Program-made: the position numbers and the translations under genes | The notes under the pieces: model-generated | The model's input: only the letters and a program-made list of their open reading frames with translations | The model's database searches: none | Told to the model about the DNA's origin: nothing | Shown: in pieces, positions 2,754-14,184 of the stretch | How the letters are laid out: each line of letters begins with the position of its first letter | How positions within the stretch are numbered: the first letter of the stretch is position 1 | Assembly: GCA_947572385.1 (NCBI GenBank) | Contig: CANPBX010000004.1 | Location: forward strand, 23,262 to 87,261 | Direction of reading: 5' to 3' | DNA length: 64,000 nt | Origin: an uncultured Clostridia bacterium | GTDB taxonomy: Bacteria > Bacillota > Clostridia > Oscillospirales > Acutalibacteraceae

Positions 2754-4757
2754 TTACTCCTCAGATGGCTCCTCAGCCACGGCAGCGTCCTCTGTGCTGA
2801 AAACTACCGCCTCGGCGGGAGCGTTCTCAGCTGCGGCGTCAGCCTCTGCCTGCTCGTCCTCCAGCACCGCGCGGATGGAGAGGGACACCCTATGGCGCTC
2901 CAGATCCACGTCGGTGATCTTCACCTTCACCATATCTCCCACCTTCAAGACGTCCTGGGGCTTGTCAATGCGGTGGTCGGCTATCTGTGAAATATGGATA
3001 AGGCCGTCGATGCCGGGTATCACGCTGGCAAAAGCGCCGAATTCGGTCATGCCAACGACCTTTGCCTCGCAGACGGTGCCCGTGGGGAACTCCCTCTCGA
3101 GCTTCACCCAGGGGTTGTCCTCGGCACGCTTATAGCCAAGGGATATCTTGCCGTTCTCACGGTCGAGGCCCTTTACGTACACTGTTACGGTGTCGCCTAC
3201 ATTCACGACCTCGCTTGGGTGCTTGACCCTGTTCCAGCTGAGCTCGGAGATATGGACCATTCCGTCTACGCCGCCCAAGTCCACAAAGGCCCCGAAGCTT
3301 GTGAGGGACTTCACCTTGCCGGTGAACTCCTGTCCCTCCTCCACCTGCTCCCAAAACTTCTGCTGGGCAGCCTTGCGCTCCTCGCGTAGGACGCTGCGGA
3401 TGGATCCCACCGCCCTGCGGCGCTTGCGGTCCACTTCTATGACCCTGAACCTTACTTCCTTGCCCTGCATTTCGTTAAGGTCGTCGCCCCGGTTTACGGT
3501 AGCCTGGGAGGCGGGCACGAACACCCTCATGCTCTCCCAGAGGACGATGACGCCGCCCTTTACCACCTCGATGACCTTGCCGTTCAGGATCTCGCTGTTG
3601 TCAAGGGCTGTCTGGATAATATCCCAGCCTTTCATGGCGTCTACACGGCGCTTGGAGAGCATGATGGTGCCCTCCTGGTCGTTTGTCTTCATAATGAGCA
3701 GCTCCAGCTCGTCGCCCATCTTCACGATGTCCTCGGGCTTTGCCGCCGGGTCGTTGGAAAGCTCTGCTACGGGGATAAAGCCCGCCTGCTTGCGCCCTAC
3801 GTCCACATAGACCTCTGTGGGGGAGATGCCCACAACTACGCCATGTACCTTCTCATCTGTATTCATGCTTTTGAGGGATTCCTCAAGCATCTCCTCAAAA
3901 TTCTGTTCCGTACTGTTGACTTCAGCCATGGTAACTAGTACCTCCTTTATTATGCTTGCCGGGGTCGAGGCCCCGGCGGTTATGCCAACGCTCAGGCCGG
4001 CGGAAAAGGTGGGCAGTTCGCTCGCCTTCTCGATGAGATACGTTCTACACTGCCCCGCGCATATATCGCGGAGCTTGGCCGTATTCGAGCTGTCCCTGCC
4101 TCCCACGACCACCATGCAGTCGCAGCTTTTGGCAAGGTCCAGCGCCTCTTTCTGCCGTTTCGCTGTTGCATTACATATTGTATCAAAAACCGAGGCATTT
4201 GTACATACCTTTTTGAGAGTTTCCAAACATTTTTCCCATTCCCCTATATGGAAGGTGGTCTGGGCCGCCGCCGCAATGGGGGTATTTGTGAGCTCTGTAT
4301 GGCTCTTTAGCAGATTTTGCAGTTCTTTATGGTCCCTGCACACAAAATATGGGCCCTTGCAGTGGCTTAGAGTCCCCTTTACCTCAGGATGGCCCGGGTC
4401 CCCGAAGAGAATAAACGTCCTGTTTTCCTCAGAGGAACACCCGGCCAAGTGGTGGATTTTTTTAACAAACGGGCAGGTAGCGTCCGCAAACTCCAGCCCC
4501 AACCGGCCTATTTCCTCCTCGGTCTCAGCGGTCACTCCGTGGGAGCGCAGCACCAGCACGTGGCCCTCCGGCGTGTCCTTCGGGGAGCCCACTACCCTTA
4601 CCCCCCTGGACTCCAGCTCCTCCACAAGCTGTGGGTTATGGAGCAGCGCCCCCAAAGTCGCCGCCTTCTTCCCTTCTTTCAGGAGGCCGTACACCATATC
4701 CACCGCCCGCTTTGCCCCGAAGCAGAAGCCGGCGGTCTTGGCAACTTTTATTTTCAC
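2754..4757 (-). CDS. ispH: Bifunctional 4-hydroxy-3-methylbut-2-enyl diphosphate reductase / 30S ribosomal protein S1
   Basis: N-terminal GFCFG, DATCP, TICNAT, GASTP motifs (IspH); C-terminal four S1 repeats (FGAFVDLGGVDGMVHISEL); GTG start overlaps the plsC stop. Confidence 0.95.
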   Translation of the reverse strand: MKIKVAKTAGFCFGAKRAVDMVYGLLKEGKKAATLGALLHNPQLVEELESRGVRVVGSPKDTPEGHVLVLRSHGVTAETEEEIGRLGLEFADATCPFVKKIHHLAGCSSEENRTFILFGDPGHPEVKGTLSHCKGPYFVCRDHKELQNLLKSHTELTNTPIAAAAQTTFHIGEWEKCLETLKKVCTNASVFDTICNATAKRQKEALDLAKSCDCMVVVGGRDSSNTAKLRDICAGQCRTYLIEKASELPTFSAGLSVGITAGASTPASIIKEVLVTMAEVNSTEQNFEEMLEESLKSMNTDEKVHGVVVGISPTEVYVDVGRKQAGFIPVAELSNDPAAKPEDIVKMGDELELLIMKTNDQEGTIMLSKRRVDAMKGWDIIQTALDNSEILNGKVIEVVKGGVIVLWESMRVFVPASQATVNRGDDLNEMQGKEVRFRVIEVDRKRRRAVGSIRSVLREERKAAQQKFWEQVEEGQEFTGKVKSLTSFGAFVDLGGVDGMVHISELSWNRVKHPSEVVNVGDTVTVYVKGLDRENGKISLGYKRAEDNPWVKLEREFPTGTVCEAKVVGMTEFGAFASVIPGIDGLIHISQIADHRIDKPQDVLKVGDMVKVKITDVDLERHRVSLSIRAVLEDEQAEADAAAENAPAEAVVFSTEDAAVAEEPSEE

Positions 4758-5437
4758 CGGGCCGCCTCCCTGTCTTCACCTGCCTGGGAGGGCAGCCCCA
4801 GCTCCTTTAGGGTCTCCTCCCTCAGTCCCGCTATCTCCTTCATAATAGTCCTGCTGGCCCGCCTCAGCTCAAGGCTGGAGTCGTCTTTTATATTAAGGTC
4901 CTTTGAAGGTATGGGCCTGCCGATATTTATAATATGCCGCTTGAACATCTTCGGCAGCCCGCCGTCCTCGGTGGTGATGCACACCGGCACTACCGGGGCC
5001 TTGGTGCGGTAGGCCAGCAGCGCGGCGCCGGTCTTTGGCCTTTGCAGCAGGCCGTCCTTTGACCGGGTGCCCTCGATAAATATGCCCACCATGCCGTTTT
5101 CGTCCAGAAGCTTATAGGCATTCTCAAGAGCGTCTGTACCGCCGCTGCCCCTTATCACCGGGAACGCCCCCAGCAGCCTCAGAAGCCCCCCAAGGAACTT
5201 CCCCCGGAAGAGCTCCTCTTTCGCCATATACAGCACCTGCCGCCACTGGGCCACCCCCAGCATAACCGGGTCCCGCTTTGCCATATGGTTGCTGCATAGG
5301 AGCACCGGCCCGGCCTTCGGTATATTCTCCCTGCCCCGGACGCTTATCCTGAACACCGGATAGTAGAACAAAGCCAGCAGCAACTGGCCTATAAGGTATA
5401 GCAAGTCCTTCCGTCTTGCCCCGCGCTTTTTTGCCAT
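4754..5437 (-). CDS. plsC: 1-acyl-sn-glycerol-3-phosphate acyltransferase
   Basis: NHxxxxD motif (SNHMAKRDP), FIEGTRS, MAKEELF; canonical cmk-plsC-ispH order. Confidence 0.88.
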   Translation of the reverse strand: MAKKRGARRKDLLYLIGQLLLALFYYPVFRISVRGRENIPKAGPVLLCSNHMAKRDPVMLGVAQWRQVLYMAKEELFRGKFLGGLLRLLGAFPVIRGSGGTDALENAYKLLDENGMVGIFIEGTRSKDGLLQRPKTGAALLAYRTKAPVVPVCITTEDGGLPKMFKRHIINIGRPIPSKDLNIKDDSSLELRRASRTIMKEIAGLREETLKELGLPSQAGEDREAAR

Positions 5438-6118
5438 TTACTCGCTACCCCCTGCCTTATTCTCCATGCGCCCCCGGGCCATGGAGGTGAGCTCCTGCAC
5501 CACCTTCCGGAAGCTAAGGCCTGTGGTGTCAAGTATCACGCCGTCCTCAGGGCGCAAATCCAGCTGGGCCGAGTCCTGCCTGTCCCTCTGCACTACCTCC
5601 CTGAGCACCTCCTGGAAGTCCGCCTGCTCCCCAGCCTCCTCAAGCTGCAGCGTGCGCCTTCTGGCCCGCTCCTCGGGGGAAGCCGTGAGGAACACCTTCA
5701 GCTGGGCCTTCGGCAGTATGACCGTGCCGATGTCCCGGCCGTCCATCACCACGTTGTTCTTTCTCGCAAGCTCCCTCTGGACCTCCACAAGGAACGCCCG
5801 GACCTCCGGGATATGGGCCACCCATCTTGACGTCGCCATGGACACCTCCTGGGTGCGTATCTTCTCCGAGACGTCGCGCCCTCCCAAAAGGGTACGCTGG
5901 CCGGCCTCCCCGTATTCCAGGGAGACCTCCACCCCGGGCAGGGCTTTTGTCACCGCCGCCGGGTCCTCAATGTCCACGCCCTTTTCCAGCATATAGAGGG
6001 CGATGGTCCTGTATATGGCCCCGGTGTCCACATAGGTGAAGCCCAGCTCCCTGGCGGCGGCCTTCGCCACGCTGGACTTCCCCGCCCCCGCCGGGCCGTC
6101 TATCGCTATTGCAAACAT
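5438..6118 (-). CDS. cmk: Cytidylate kinase
   Basis: IAIDGPAGAGKSS P-loop, DTGAIYR, MDGRDIGT. Confidence 0.95.
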   Translation of the reverse strand: MFAIAIDGPAGAGKSSVAKAAARELGFTYVDTGAIYRTIALYMLEKGVDIEDPAAVTKALPGVEVSLEYGEAGQRTLLGGRDVSEKIRTQEVSMATSRWVAHIPEVRAFLVEVQRELARKNNVVMDGRDIGTVILPKAQLKVFLTASPEERARRRTLQLEEAGEQADFQEVLREVVQRDRQDSAQLDLRPEDGVILDTTGLSFRKVVQELTSMARGRMENKAGGSE

Positions 6119-7109: not shown

Positions 7110-8340
7110 TTGCTCCCTCCTGTTTTCCCATGCTCACCCCTGCAAGCCTTCCCGTGGCAAAGGCTATCTGTAAATTGTACCCCCCTGTAGGCGCGTCCAC
7201 GTCCAGCATTTCCCCGGCAAAGTAGAGCCCCTCTATAAGCTTCGAGCCCATGGTCCTGGGGTCAACCTCCTTAAGGCTCACGCCCCCGGCGGTAACTATC
7301 GCTTCCGCAATGGGCCTGAAGCCCTCTATCTCCACCGTGAAGTCCTTTAGTACCCCAAGCAGGCTCCTTCGCTGCTCTCTGGTCATAGAGTTGCACCTTG
7401 TCTCCCCGGGCACGCCCGAGCGCTCAACCGCCACAGGTATCAGCTTCTGGGGCAGGAGCCTGTCAAGGGAATTTATCAGCTGCCGGTTTCTGTTCTCCTC
7501 CAGGTCCCGCAGGAGCCTTGCGTCCAGCTGCCCCTCGTCCAGGGCTGGCTTTAGGTCTATATGCACCATATAGGCTCCGGGCGCCATAGGGCGCATAAAC
7601 GCAGAGGCGCTCAAAATAGTGGGCCCTGAGAGTCCGAAGTGCGTAAAGAGCAGTTCCCCAAAGTCCTCATATACCGGCTTCTTTTTCCCCGCGGCCGTGA
7701 CCCTGACCCCTACGTTGCGCAGGGACAGGCCCATAAGCCTTTGGCAGAACTCCCCCGCCTCAACAAGCGGCACCAGGGACGGCCCTATGGGGGCTATGGT
7801 ATGCCCAAGCCTCTCGCAGAGCCTGTAGCCCGACCCGTCCGAGCCGGTCGCCGGATAAGAGGCCCCGCCGCAGGCCAGCAGCACATTTCTCCCCTTATAA
7901 TATCCTTTATTCGTCCTTACCCCGGTAATATGCCCATTCTCCGCAAGCACCTCGGTTGCCGTCTCCCGGCGAAGCTCCGCGCCCGCTGCAAAGCGCGCAA
8001 GGGCCCCGGCTATATCCGCCGCCCTGTCCGACCGGGGGAACACCCTGCGGCCCCGCTCAGTTTTCAGTGGAACGCCAAGGCCCTCAAAAAAAGCCATAGT
8101 GTCCTCGGGGGTGAAGCCTGACAGCGCGCTGTAGAGGAACCTTCCTCCCCGGGCGGCGGAGATGACATCCTCCGGCGGGCAGTTGTTCGTCACATTGCAG
8201 CGCCCCTTGCCTGTGATCCTCAGCTTGCGCCCAGGCAGCTCATTTTTGTCAAGCACCAGGGTGCTGAGCCCCCGCCTGGCGCAGTTTCCCGCAGCCATAA
8301 GCCCCGCGGCCCCGGCCCCGACTATAATAACGTCTCTCAG
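7102..8340 (-). CDS. HI0933/YhiN family FAD-dependent oxidoreductase (probable CTG start)
   Basis: KLRITGKGRCNVTN, ACGGASYPATGSDG, AIVTAGGV, TGGYNLQ; the GAGAAG FAD motif lies upstream of ATG 8298, so the start is extended to CTG 8340. Confidence 0.9.
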   Translation of the reverse strand: MRDVIIVGAGAAGLMAAGNCARRGLSTLVLDKNELPGRKLRITGKGRCNVTNNCPPEDVISAARGGRFLYSALSGFTPEDTMAFFEGLGVPLKTERGRRVFPRSDRAADIAGALARFAAGAELRRETATEVLAENGHITGVRTNKGYYKGRNVLLACGGASYPATGSDGSGYRLCERLGHTIAPIGPSLVPLVEAGEFCQRLMGLSLRNVGVRVTAAGKKKPVYEDFGELLFTHFGLSGPTILSASAFMRPMAPGAYMVHIDLKPALDEGQLDARLLRDLEENRNRQLINSLDRLLPQKLIPVAVERSGVPGETRCNSMTREQRRSLLGVLKDFTVEIEGFRPIAEAIVTAGGVSLKEVDPRTMGSKLIEGLYFAGEMLDVDAPTGGYNLQIAFATGRLAGVSMGKQEGANG

Positions 8341-9209
8341 CTGTTCCTCTCCTCCACCTTCTCATATACTCCGTACTCGTCCCAAATACCCTCTATCTTC
8401 TCCAGCACATTTATTACTTCCTTCTTCCTTCGGATAGCCGCCGTGACTATCAGGGCGTTTATCACGCTGAGCGGCCCCACCAGGGAGTCCACAAAGGACA
8501 CCATATCGCTTCTTGCCAGCAGCACATGGGAGGCGCTCTGTGCCAGAGGGGAGGCGGTGCTGTCGGTTATGGCTATAGCCGTCATGCCCTGCCTTGAGGC
8601 ATACTGCAAAGCCCTTGCAGCCTTCTTGGAGTACCTGGGGAAGCTGATGGCGATTATCGCGTCCTCCCTGTCCACATGGACCATCTGCTGAAGTATCTGC
8701 GCCTCGCTTGTAGCCTCTATGAGCTGCACGCTGTCGAAAACCAGCTGCATATAGTGGGCCAGGAAGGTCGCCAGGGCCAGTGAGCTCCCCGCCCCCAAGA
8801 CAAAGACCCGCCTGGCGTTCACCAGGGCGTCCACCGCCCTATAGAACTCCGCCCTGTCCACGCCCTCCCTTGTGCGGCGCAGTATGTCTATATCCTGCCC
8901 CAGCACGGCATCCAGGAGCTTATCCGGCGGTATGTTCCTGGAGGTCATCTCCAGGCGCTGGAAGCTGGTCATTTTGTTGCGTATCATCTCCTGCACGGCC
9001 TGCTGCATCGCCGGATACCCGGAGTAGCCTATCTCCGTGGCGAAGCGCACCACCGTGGACTCGCTGACCCCCACCGTTGAGCCCAGGCGGGAGGCTGTCA
9101 TAAAGGCAACTTCTTCGGGGTGCTCCTGCAAATATCTGGCGATGGCCCGCTGGCTCTTTGAGAAGCCCCGGCGGTTCTCCTGTATCTTTTCGGAAAGCTG
9201 ATCGTTCAT
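8337..9209 (-). CDS. MurR/RpiR family transcriptional regulator
   Basis: N-terminal HTH (SKSQRAIARY...GVSESTVVRFATEIGYSGY) plus SIS domain (ISFPRYS, ITDSTASPLA). Confidence 0.92.
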   Translation of the reverse strand: MNDQLSEKIQENRRGFSKSQRAIARYLQEHPEEVAFMTASRLGSTVGVSESTVVRFATEIGYSGYPAMQQAVQEMIRNKMTSFQRLEMTSRNIPPDKLLDAVLGQDIDILRRTREGVDRAEFYRAVDALVNARRVFVLGAGSSLALATFLAHYMQLVFDSVQLIEATSEAQILQQMVHVDREDAIIAISFPRYSKKAARALQYASRQGMTAIAITDSTASPLAQSASHVLLARSDMVSFVDSLVGPLSVINALIVTAAIRRKKEVINVLEKIEGIWDEYGVYEKVEERNS

Positions 9210-9247
9210 AGGTCGCTTTATTCCTCCAAAAAAACGTATTTAACATG

Positions 9248-9369: not shown

Positions 9370-9483
9370 TCACCAGCGCAGCTCGCATTTTCCCCTTGCG
9401 CCCTTAAACTCCCAGAGTAAAAAGTACCGGCTTCCGGCCTCCAGTTCTATCCTGCCGGCTGCCGGTCCGGCTTCATCATCCAT
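9370..9483 (-). CDS. Putative 37-aa small protein (MDDEAGPAAGRIELEAGSRYFLLWEFKGARGKCELRW)
   Basis: Read by hand; lies between the 9505 stop and the terminator; the SD-like GGAGG sits too close to the ATG, so support is weak. Confidence 0.25.
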   Translation of the reverse strand: MDDEAGPAAGRIELEAGSRYFLLWEFKGARGKCELRW

Positions 9484-9504: not shown

Positions 9505-10047
9505 TCAGTTTCTAAAATATCCCGCCAGCTTCCCGTGGAGCCTTCTGAAGTACTCCCTGATCAGCCCCTGCAGAGTTTTATCATAGAGCACGAACACCAG
9601 GTTTGCCAATACAGCCAGCGCTATAAGGCTCCAGGGCATTGGCAAAAACGGTATGTCCTCCCAGGGTATCCCCAGCACATATACCGTGAGGGCCGCCTCA
9701 AGGGCTGCGGCTATATTAAATATCCCCAGCTTTGCCAGCCAGCAGAGCACAGGGCTCCTTATCTTACTCAGCCACGCGAACAGCACCGGGTAATACCCGA
9801 AGAACAGCAGGTATATCAGCGCCGCCTCCCTGTCGGGGGCTATGAACATACATAATGCGGCCGTGGCCCCATACGAGCCCAGGGCCCAGCCTGCGCCGGC
9901 CTCGGCTACGATGGGTATCAGCAGGCACCCGGCTATGGCCGGTATAGCTATGGAGGCCACCTGCACCAGCCCCTCAAACATCATCATCACCACCGAGAGG
10001 GCCGATACCACCCCGCATACGGCGATTTTAGCTGTATTGCCTCTCAT
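9505..10047 (-). CDS. Conserved integral membrane protein (about 5-6 TM segments, ECF S-component-like size)
   Basis: Hydrophobic throughout; SD GGGGCCGGGAGA; 15 bp from the J-domain gene stop. Confidence 0.75.
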   Translation of the reverse strand: MRGNTAKIAVCGVVSALSVVMMMFEGLVQVASIAIPAIAGCLLIPIVAEAGAGWALGSYGATAALCMFIAPDREAALIYLLFFGYYPVLFAWLSKIRSPVLCWLAKLGIFNIAAALEAALTVYVLGIPWEDIPFLPMPWSLIALAVLANLVFVLYDKTLQGLIREYFRRLHGKLAGYFRN

Positions 10048-10062
10048 ATCTCCCGGCCCCTC

Positions 10063-10683
10063 TTAGCAGCAGGGTATCAGGTCGCCGCCCATGCACTCAC
10101 AGCAGCAGTCCGCCATTAGCAGTCCCGAGCACATATCGCAGGTGTTGCACTCGCCGCCGGCACTCCTGCCCGGGTTATAGCCGCCGTACATACCGCCCCT
10201 TTGATTCATAGCCTGGTTCAAAGCCGCGCTGTACTCCGGGTTACCCGGGTCCATCTGGCAGGCCCTGGAGAAGTGGTCCTTTGCCTCCTCCAGCCAGCCT
10301 CGGCGGTACAGCACGGAGCCCTTGAGGAAGTACCATTCGGCGTTCCGCCTGTCAGCCGGGACGCCGTTTAGTATCTGCTCAGCATCCGCAAAGCGCCCGG
10401 ACATAATTAGGCTGCGCACGTCGCCGAAACCCGAGGATCCATAGGCTCCCGCGCCGGGGTTATAGCCCGCGCTATAACCGCCCTTACTGCCGCTGCGCCG
10501 CTGGGCCGTTATAGTATCATATGCCTCGTTTATCTCCTTCATCTTCTCGTCGGCAAGCTCCTTCAAGGGGCTCTCGGCGTATTGGTCAGGATGGTATTTC
10601 TTGGCAAGCTTGCGGTATGCGTCCTTGATCTCCTCGTCTGTAGCGGTGCGGGATACCCCCAGCGCCTTGTACGGATCACTCAT
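10063..10683 (-). CDS. J-domain + TPR protein with Cys-rich C-terminus
   Basis: DPYKALGV...[12 protein letters not shown]-domain with intact HPD; TPR (AEWYFLKG...DPGNPEY); tail CNTCDMC...CCCEC...PCC. Confidence 0.88.
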
Positions 10684-10732
10684 TGATTAAACCCTTCCCT
10701 TTATTGTTTTGAGTATGTTTATGGCCTCTGAT

Positions 10733-10768
10733 CCCTGCCGCCTTTTTCCAAAGGCGGACAAAACTTTT
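10733..10768 (+). repeat. REP-like hairpin repeat copy 1
   Basis: CCCTGCCGCCTTTTTCCAAAGGCGGACAAAACTTTT; homologous to 45539-45589. Confidence 0.65.
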
Positions 10769-11669
10769 ACTTTAGCTCGCGTTTGGGCTTCTCCCTTATG
10801 TGCAGGAACAGGATCTCCCTCTGGACCTCTGCCAGGCCCTTTTGGGCCACGTTCTCGATTATGGGGCCGAACTGCCCCATCTCGATCAGGTTTGCCGCCA
10901 GCACCAGCCTTGCCGCCGTTGCGTTCAGGGCTTCGTTGCAGGCCTTGTCTGCGGCCCTGCGCTCCTCCTGGGTGAGCTCCTTCTTTCCCTCAAGGCCCAG
11001 GCGCTTTATAAATGGATTAAAGCTTCCCGAGCGCATATCCTCCGCCAGGTCGTCCGCCGCGTCCATCAGGTACACCCATCTGCCAAGGAAATACCCAAAG
11101 CTCTCCAGCGCGGGGCGCTGCTTATTATCGCAGCCTGCCAGCTCCCCGAAAAGCTCTCTGAGAAGATTCGCCGTGGGCTCCGCACAGCGGTCTACTCCCG
11201 CGCCTTCTTCCTCGGCCTGCCGCTGGCCCTCCATGGCCTTCTCCACTATGCTTGCCATACCGGGATACTGCCTTGCCGCCCTTCTGGCCTTTGGTGAGAC
11301 TGCCGGCAGCAGCAGCCTGCTTCCAAGGGAGGCGAAAAAGCTCTCGTCCTCACAGTCGTCGCGGAGCTTATGATACGTCAGCAGAACGCAGAGGGCCGCC
11401 GCCTTTTTATATGCCTCCCCGGGGCTTGGGAGGTATGTGCAGGCCTTTAAGGGATTGCACACACAGCGCCGCTTCTGCTCCTCCACCCTGCCGCCTGTCA
11501 CCGACAGGGCCAGCATTGCGTAGAACGCGCAGTCATAGCTCAAGGCAAAGCGGGCCAGTACGCCGTATTCGTCCCCGAGCACCCGGCAGAGCTGGCAGTA
11601 TACCGCCTTATACTGCCCGTACTCCTTTACCAGCAGCTCGGGCTTATATGGGCGCACATATCCGAACAT
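10767..11669 (-). CDS. DUF5685-like protein
   Basis: MFGYVRPYKPEL...YKAVYCQLC N-terminus typical of this family as recalled; Asp-rich motifs DDCEDE and DAADDLAED...G.FNP. Confidence 0.8.
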   Translation of the reverse strand: MFGYVRPYKPELLVKEYGQYKAVYCQLCRVLGDEYGVLARFALSYDCAFYAMLALSVTGGRVEEQKRRCVCNPLKACTYLPSPGEAYKKAAALCVLLTYHKLRDDCEDESFFASLGSRLLLPAVSPKARRAARQYPGMASIVEKAMEGQRQAEEEGAGVDRCAEPTANLLRELFGELAGCDNKQRPALESFGYFLGRWVYLMDAADDLAEDMRSGSFNPFIKRLGLEGKKELTQEERRAADKACNEALNATAARLVLAANLIEMGQFGPIIENVAQKGLAEVQREILFLHIREKPKRELK

Positions 11670-13318: not shown

Positions 13319-13476
13319 GTGTTTTGTGTCCAGAATATTATGTAAATATGATGAATATATTTCCGTGATATGAACGCTTCGCCTTCACTCTTCGACCCTT
13401 TGAAAGTTTCTCTTTATTTTTTCGTCCGGCTATGCTAAAATATATTTATTATGTGAATTATCAGGAGGCTGGCCCT

Positions 13477-14184
13477 ATGAGAGAGGATATCTGCTCAATA
13501 CCCGTGAACGAAGTATTTGAACCCAAAGACGGCTGCCCCTTCTGCCGTATGCGCGATATGCTGGAGGACCGCATGGCGACCTATATCACAGGCGCCGCCA
13601 TGATGGAGCCCGACGTGCGCATAGAGACGAACCGCCTTGGCTTCTGCTCTGAGCATTTCAACCAGATACTCGCCCGGGGCAGCAGGCTCTCGGTGGCCCT
13701 TATCCTGGAGAGCCTTTTAGCCGAGGTGAAGGGCCAGGTCTTCCCTGAGGGCAAAGCCGTGCCCAAGAAGATAGCCGCAACCGTACACAGCCGGGAGGAT
13801 AACTGCTTTATCTGCACGAATATTAAAGACAGCATGAGGCACCTTTTGGAGAGCACTATAGCCCTCTGGCAGAACGAGCAGGAGTTTAGGGACCTGTACA
13901 CCGCCCAGCAGTTCATCTGCCTGCCCCACTACGGGATGGCTGTGGAGGCCGCGGCTAAAATGCCCAGGAAAAATTTCGCGCTCTTCGAGGCTGAGACCAC
14001 CCGCCTTGCAAAGGCCTATCTTGAGGCGCTCAGCGGCGATGTGACCCACTTCTGCCGCATGTTCGACTACCGCAACGCCGGTGGGGACTGGGGCAGCTCC
14101 AAGGACTCCATCGAGCGCGCCATGACCTGGCTCACCTCCCGCGCGCCCACGGCCCAGCAGGACTCCGGGGAGAAAAACCGTTGA
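13477..14184 (+). CDS. DUF6062-like protein with duplicated Cys/His motifs
   Basis: CPFC, FCSEH, CFIC, CLPH motifs; SD AGGAGG before ATG 13477. Confidence 0.75.
   Translation: MREDICSIPVNEVFEPKDGCPFCRMRDMLEDRMATYITGAAMMEPDVRIETNRLGFCSEHFNQILARGSRLSVALILESLLAEVKGQVFPEGKAVPKKIAATVHSREDNCFICTNIKDSMRHLLESTIALWQNEQEFRDLYTAQQFICLPHYGMAVEAAAKMPRKNFALFEAETTRLAKAYLEALSGDVTHFCRMFDYRNAGGDWGSSKDSIERAMTWLTSRAPTAQQDSGEKNR

Follow-up and report, generated by a model that had tools for sequence, protein, structure and literature searches.

Why should a protein of an uncharacterised, enzyme-like family be encoded directly upstream of a DnaK co-chaperone that ends in a string of cysteines? The question is raised by three genes on the minus strand of a 64,000-nucleotide stretch of DNA (the window) from an uncultured Clostridia bacterium. 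They encode a DUF5685 protein of 300 amino acids (window positions 10767-11669), a J-domain protein of 206 amino acids with a tetratricopeptide repeat (TPR) region and a Cys-rich tail (10063-10683), and a polytopic membrane protein of 180 amino acids (9505-10047). An initial annotation, made from the letters of the window, had described these three open reading frames (ORFs) as co-oriented, and all of them lie at these positions. The DUF5685 protein is 96% identical to its counterpart in Acutalibacter sp. 1XD8-36; the host is an Acutalibacter species. In the searched literature we found no description of a function for PF18937/DUF5685, the sole mention of DUF5685 being in an in silico domain list. 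As a tentative proposal, which we would not call probable, we suggest that the DUF5685 protein modifies the Cys tail of its neighbour in analogy to ComQ and ComX, and that this anchors the TPR/J protein at the membrane.

The DUF5685 protein matches Pfam family PF18937 over its full length (E 8.4e-71, 239 bits against a cut-off of 26.7, profile positions 1-269 of 272). Up to E 0.01 this was its only Pfam match, and neither PF00348 nor PF00494 was found. Its AlphaFold2 model, computed from an alignment of 34 sequences, reached a predicted local distance difference test (pLDDT) score of 91.9 and a predicted template modelling (pTM) score of 0.89. When the model was compared with the PDB by Foldseek, the top 50 matches were all isoprenoid-synthase-fold proteins, with TM-scores of 0.33-0.59 and four of them at E <1e-3. 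The best matches reached TM-scores of about 0.55-0.6, headed by 3lmd (E 5.9e-4, TM-score 0.56), and the matches include geranylgeranyl, octaprenyl, solanesyl and farnesyl diphosphate synthases, human squalene synthase and the prenyltransferase Ord1. The initial annotation had likened the Asp-rich motifs to those of class I isoprenoid synthases, and the model strongly supports placing DUF5685 within the class I isoprenoid-synthase fold, as a divergent member. In a local hhalign comparison with Clostridial polyprenyl synthases, the motifs fell weakly into register with the first and second Asp-rich motifs of these enzymes (FARM and SARM; P 0.003, probability 10%); the global alignment failed, and the register was seen in local mode only. 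Searching the PDB sequences with the DUF5685 alignment profile gave no significant link, the best prenyl synthase, a heptaprenyl enzyme, having E 0.41. Designed helical repeats at the top of that search were judged spurious.

The two Asp-rich motifs and the N-terminal CxxC to which the initial annotation had drawn attention are all present in the window protein, as HKLRDDCEDE (aa 100-109), GRWVYLMDAADDLAEDMRSGSFNP (aa 196-219) and C25-x2-C28. Conservation was measured on 150 diverse representatives of 50%-identity clusters. In the first motif, of the DDxxD type (DDCEDE, D104-E109; 11343-11360, minus strand), D104 and D108 are 100% invariant, and position 105 is D in 110 of 151 sequences and N in 26. 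The second motif, D-A-x2-D-x3-D, reads DAADDLAED in the window (11037-11063, minus strand); D203 (100%), A204 (99%), D207 (100%) and D211 (97%) are followed by N218 (99%). With their i, i+4, i+8 spacing, D203, D207 and D211 place three acidic residues on one helix face. D104, D108, E153, D203, D207, D211 and N218 are all 97-100% invariant. Neither of two results that would have told against the initial annotation, another fold or variable Asp motifs, was thus obtained. The DDxxD motif and the D-x3-D-x3-D triad are predicted to be the two Mg2+/diphosphate-binding elements of the fold. Apart from these positions and A204, 95-100% invariance is found for M1, G3, Y24, C25, C28, L43, D46, F49, C69, G196, Y200, N273 and G278. 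C25 (99%), C28 (99%) and C69 (100%) make up an N-terminal Cys cluster (11463-11597, minus strand); 117 of 151 sequences have a His at position 72, where the window protein has Asn72 with Cys71 adjoining.

The DUF5685 protein thus resembles trans-prenyl diphosphate synthases and squalene/phytoene synthases in its fold (TM-score 0.5-0.6), in its DDxxD motif and in a second acidic motif that follows about 100 residues later. It differs from them in that the second motif has the form DAxxDxxxD and in that the basic motifs that bind isopentenyl diphosphate are not conserved. Unique to DUF5685 in this comparison are its N-terminal Cys cluster and an invariant MFGY start.

The product of the second gene has a J domain (10504-10677, minus strand; PF00226, E 1.9e-18, 66.7 bits against a cut-off of 27.8) with the HPD motif at aa 31-33 (10585-10593). 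A Gly/Tyr-rich linker connects it to a TPR-like helical region at aa 90-155 (10219-10416, minus strand), detected by PF07719 (TPR_2, E 7e-07) and also matched by TPR_19, TPR_14 and TPR_16. The tail, which comprises the last 28 residues (10066-10149, minus strand), holds nine Cys and ends in CC; HPD, TPR, Cys count and terminal CC all are as first annotated. By its DnaJ-TPR architecture the protein is assigned to the class C J-proteins. It is not a canonical class A DnaJ: Pfam gave no DnaJ_C or DnaJ_CXXCXGXG match, and the NCBIfam DnaJ equivalog scored 67 bits against a cut-off of 377, covering aa 4-63 only. The window genome has just two J-proteins, this one and the canonical dnaJ product, whose gene lies beside the single dnaK. 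In a large survey of J-proteins, DnaJ-TPR appears only as a generic architecture (PMC10410713).

In relatives, the tail follows the pattern C-x2-C-x2-C-x4-C-x-D-x-CCC-E-C-x-GGDLI-x-CC. Among 108 relatives, the last 30 residues contain on average 9.2 Cys, compared with 0.8 in the rest of the protein, and 3.2 D/E as opposed to 0.4 K/R; 84 of the 108 tails end in CC. The window tail has no Trp, which occurs in some lineages only, and Cys are the conserved residues. The TPR-plus-tail part as a whole is highly conserved. Used alone as a query it retrieved 4,746 clusters, and the sole name among these was 'DnaJ domain-containing protein'.

For the third protein, searches of Pfam, NCBIfam, PHROGs and PDB sequences gave no match. 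Its AlphaFold2 model (pLDDT 91.5) has helices that make it polytopic, and in the PDB Foldseek found only one coherent match, TmRibU (prob 0.96, TM-score 0.46-0.49, weak E 0.27). The protein thus is weakly similar to the S components of energy-coupling factor (ECF) transporters, of which RibU is one, in being a small membrane protein of the six-helix type. It differs from them in having no membership in their sequence families, and no EcfA or EcfT recurs among the clustered neighbours of its gene. The nearly invariant polar residues E49, K106, N111 and D156 are spread along the protein and are consistent with a ligand or partner site.

PF18937 occurs in 166 of 300 sampled Clostridia genomes and in 108 of 177 genera; the family counts 6,695 representatives of 50%-identity clusters (E up to 1e-3). 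A J gene lies directly downstream of the DUF5685 gene in 27 of 30 class-wide loci and in about 76 of the 80 named loci. The whole trio, in the order DUF5685, J gene, membrane gene, is found in about 75 of these 80, with exceptions that are mostly contig ends, and most of 20 further loci show it as well. The S-component-like gene follows the J gene in 105 of the 107 loci with a knot-type tail and enough downstream sequence. When all neighbouring ORFs were clustered, nothing else recurred beyond lineage-local synteny. The association of the three genes is far beyond chance. The genes are co-conserved, as the initial annotation would have them, and it is strongly supported that they form one functional module of Clostridia.

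From the fold, the motifs and the gene linkage, we infer the chemistry of this module, its acceptor and the role of the membrane protein. The DUF5685 protein would ionise an allylic prenyl diphosphate and transfer the prenyl group onto thiols of the tail that is encoded next door, as ComQ does to ComX. Through its modified tail, the TPR/J protein would be held at the membrane next to the third, S-component-like protein, and at this site the J domain would recruit the cell's only DnaK. In its most far-reaching form, the proposal would describe the first bacterial protein S-prenylation system, in which DUF5685 puts several prenyl groups on the Cys string of a co-chaperone, so that Clostridia would have at their membrane a lipid-anchored platform for recruiting Hsp70; in this form we regard it as somewhat unlikely.

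The gene arrangement has a precedent, since prenyltransferases that resemble the trans type of isoprenyl diphosphate synthase (trans-IDS) are encoded beside their peptide substrates (PMC5331326, PMC10853753, PMC13290415). Like DUF5685, ComQ (with ComX), PalQ, the P domain of ChrPC and StheQ (with StheX) are soluble isoprenoid-synthase-fold enzymes with Asp-rich motifs. In both cases, the enzyme gene is located immediately upstream of the presumed substrate gene and often overlaps it; overlapping DUF5685 and J reading frames are frequent in relatives, unlike in the window, where 83 nucleotides separate them. The related Ord1 is among the fold matches of DUF5685. In contrast, the ComQ-type enzymes modify Trp of short secreted peptides, whereas here the neighbour is a cytoplasmic J/TPR protein of about 200 residues with a Cys string and no conserved Trp. 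DUF5685 furthermore has an extra N-terminal part with the Cys3(His) site and matches no polyprenyl_synt profile. DUF5685 is not one of the trans-IDS-like Trp prenyltransferases, whose Gln before the SARM it lacks, though it may act in a similar way.

On the side of the co-chaperone, the nearest analogies are eukaryotic. Lipids borne by Cys residues hold Hsp70 co-chaperones on membranes in the palmitoylated cysteine-string protein (CSP, DNAJC5) and in the farnesylated Ydj1/DNAJA with its CaaX box (PMC4447612). An N-terminal J domain with HPD and Cys residues are common to these proteins and ours; the resemblance is a functional analogy only. The lipidating enzymes, DHHC acyltransferases and the alpha/beta farnesyltransferase, are unrelated to DUF5685. 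Moreover, the string of CSP is central, whereas the tail of the window protein is placed at the extreme C-terminus behind the TPR, is acidic and has fixed spacing. The Rab geranylgeranylation signal, a C-terminal CC or CXC recognised by an alpha/beta protein prenyltransferase that is again unrelated to DUF5685, likewise offers a resemblance only, to the CC at the end of most knot-type tails. Among bacterial proteins, DjlA and DjlB/DjlC (the latter with HscC) are class C J-proteins that bring Hsp70 to the membrane. They do so by ordinary transmembrane-helix anchors and have no Cys string, TPR or enzyme partner; the window genome has one dnaK.

A related module, locus L143 of genome G259, has a dnaK gene (585 aa; 7483-9237) directly after the Cys-tailed J gene. 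We rejected DnaK adjacency as a recurring feature: five of the six loci with neighbours in the DnaK cluster encode a 341-aa MreB-like protein, and only L143 has a real dnaK.

Several observations weigh against prenyl transfer to the tail. According to a 2026 review, all characterised trans-IDS-like peptide prenyltransferases, and all characterised peptide-modifying enzymes of this fold, act on Trp and not on Cys, and they share a Gln before the SARM that serves in Trp recognition (PMC13290415). The corresponding position 202 of DUF5685 is occupied by I, M, L, A or V, and the five residues seen most often there in 151 sequences do not include Gln. The sole invariant basic position is K/R197, which is few for a diphosphate site. 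Sequence-level ties to prenyl synthases are weak, as given above (PDB profile E 0.41; hhalign probability 10%). Finally, the tail is acidic, and its conserved D, E and GGD stand at fixed spacing, traits that recall a folded knot for binding metal, or a specific interface, rather than a string for lipidation. The conserved Cys3(His) site of DUF5685 itself fits a metal-centred function equally well.

These last two points lead to the main rival explanation, a metal or Fe-S module, which we regard as unlikely. In such a module, Zn, Fe-S or some other metal would be bound by the Cys tail and by DUF5685 at its Cys3(His) site, the two perhaps sharing one cluster. The J/TPR protein would then be a metal-dependent co-chaperone like HscB, Dph4 or the DnaJ zinc finger, and the S-component-like protein would supply or sense the metal or cofactor, with the isoprenoid-synthase fold serving as a scaffold. 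Such a module would account for the fixed Cys spacing, for the conserved D, E and GGD of the acidic tail, for the invariant C25, C28 and C69 and for the His found at position 72 in most DUF5685 sequences. ECF S components include metal-capture proteins, and an HscB-type similarity of the J domain appears weakly in NCBIfam. However, a metal module leaves unexplained why six acidic residues in prenyl-diphosphate/Mg2+ motifs are 97-100% invariant. Just five tail Cys positions reach 90% conservation, the others 50-80%.

A second subtype of the gene trio also speaks against a metal module, for DUF5685 is retained there although the Cys of the tail are far fewer and differently placed. In ten modules (L143-L149, L155, L158 and L161) the tail is hydrophobic and non-acidic, with 4-8 Cys and variable ends. 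None of the ten has the S-component-like gene; six have instead a small membrane protein with a zinc ribbon. In the DUF5685 tree, the members of this subtype fall essentially into one clade (support 100/97), with which an intermediate that bears both membrane genes is nested, and genome G021 holds both tail subtypes (L155 and L156). The covariation of tail type and membrane partner (105 of 107 against 0 of 10) was considered as independent evidence of contact between the two proteins and rejected, because a subtype that is about one clade counts as one or two events and gives no statistical support. The window genome also encodes a homologue of the zinc-ribbon membrane protein, outside the module (G000:C32:10091-10495, minus strand, E 2.8e-23).

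A further variant bears on which parts make up the core of the module. HPD is kept in 108 of 113 relatives with the knot-type tail. Five modules are without it (L089:4812-5423, L096:4788-5441, L099:2500-3105, L101:4821-5429 and L153:1362-1973), and in this clade about ten residues of the loop between J-domain helices II and III are deleted. L153 comes from the window's own GTDB family. The HPD-less clade keeps the invariant residues of DUF5685, the TPR, the Cys tail and both membrane genes; its DUF5685 N-terminus reads LLGY, not MFGY. Since HPD is lost while enzyme, TPR, tail and membrane genes persist, stimulation of DnaK seems dispensable for the core. From these sequences, the pair of enzyme and tail seems to be the core of the module and DnaK recruitment an addition to it. 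Four short proteins that seemed to lack a J domain altogether (P0288, P0290, P0296 and P0339) were discarded as evidence: each begins at a Met inside J-domain helix III, and they probably are truncated gene calls.

That DnaK is not always needed would also suit another explanation, which we consider quite improbable: DUF5685 might be an enzyme of small-molecule metabolism that makes or modifies a terpenoid or other isoprenoid lipid, which the membrane protein takes up or delivers. The J/TPR protein would only aid the folding, assembly or membrane delivery of these two partners, and its Cys tail would be a zinc knot that binds clients. In its fold and motifs DUF5685 looks like a typical terpene or prenyl synthase, and the i, i+4, i+8 triad recalls the NSE/DTE motif. 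In clade f47 (L150:903-3125; also L013, L015 and L021), no J gene accompanies DUF5685, whose neighbour is a MATE-like transporter with 11 transmembrane helices. On the other hand, so strict a pairing of an enzyme with a private J-protein would be unusual, and modules with a decayed J domain still have the Cys tail, so that the tail is more than a chaperone accessory. Very improbable, to our mind, is a pseudo-enzyme adaptor, in which DUF5685, without catalysis, would be a regulatory or targeting subunit that binds the J-protein at its tail or TPR: the fold does have non-catalytic members, such as the small subunits of heteromeric prenyl synthases, and invariant basic residues are few, but pseudo-enzymes usually lose their metal-binding Asp, and here the Asp are the most conserved positions throughout a family of 6,695 representatives.

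In the 83-nucleotide spacer between the DUF5685 and J genes of the window, a strong hairpin of eight G+C-rich pairs without a U-run (10733-10763, minus strand; fold of 10675-10775) sits right after the DUF5685 stop codon, where the terminator scan gave no call, and the J gene has a separate ribosome-binding site of its own in this spacer. The membrane gene starts 15 nucleotides beyond the J stop codon. That one terminator closes the trio was the weakest part of the initial annotation. A terminator-like hairpin with a T-run does exist 3' of the third gene (9438..9426, minus strand), with merely a 5-bp stem, and such sites are no commoner in the region than in shuffled sequence (3 found, 3.3 expected).

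Proximity of the isoprenoid-precursor gene ispH had been mentioned as perhaps coincidental, and this caution was justified. The gene (2754-4757, minus strand; 4.7-6.7 kb from the trio) sits in a cmk-plsC-ispH/rpsA housekeeping block, and no isoprenoid gene is recurrent near the module among the clustered neighbours; ispH was hence rejected as a functional neighbour. It is a LytB-S1 fusion, in which LytB is joined in one ORF to four S1 domains resembling those of ribosomal protein S1, downstream of cmk (5438-6118) and an acyltransferase gene (4754-5437). Among neighbours that recur within lineages, RpiR together with an HI0933-like flavoprotein is seen in 21-23 loci, and cmk is seen in 14. Ruminococcus-like genomes repeatedly encode, some 0.8 kb upstream of the module, a Cys-rich protein of about 280 aa that belongs to no Pfam family (cluster 7; L075:151-1029 and 14 further loci), which probably is lineage synteny. 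The window also encodes, 1.8 kb upstream of the trio on the other strand (13432-14184, plus strand), a 250-aa protein of family DUF6062 (PF19538) that has several Cys pairs. DUF6062 is another uncharacterised family, and its gene is kept beside the module in the nearest relatives only (3 loci).

DUF5685 is a large family, present in more than half of the sampled Clostridia genomes, among them many gut commensals. If its members modify the Cys tail of the neighbouring J-protein, this would extend protein prenylation to bacteria, and it would add Cys as a new acceptor chemistry to the trans-IDS-like prenyltransferases that are now developed as biocatalysts. A platform built by S-prenylation would have evolved independently of the lipidation of CSP, Ydj1 and Rab in eukaryotes, with a different enzyme fold. 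Modification of the tail would also bring to light a branch of the DnaK system that is tethered to the membrane. If the tail binds a metal instead, the module would define a new metal-dependent co-chaperone.

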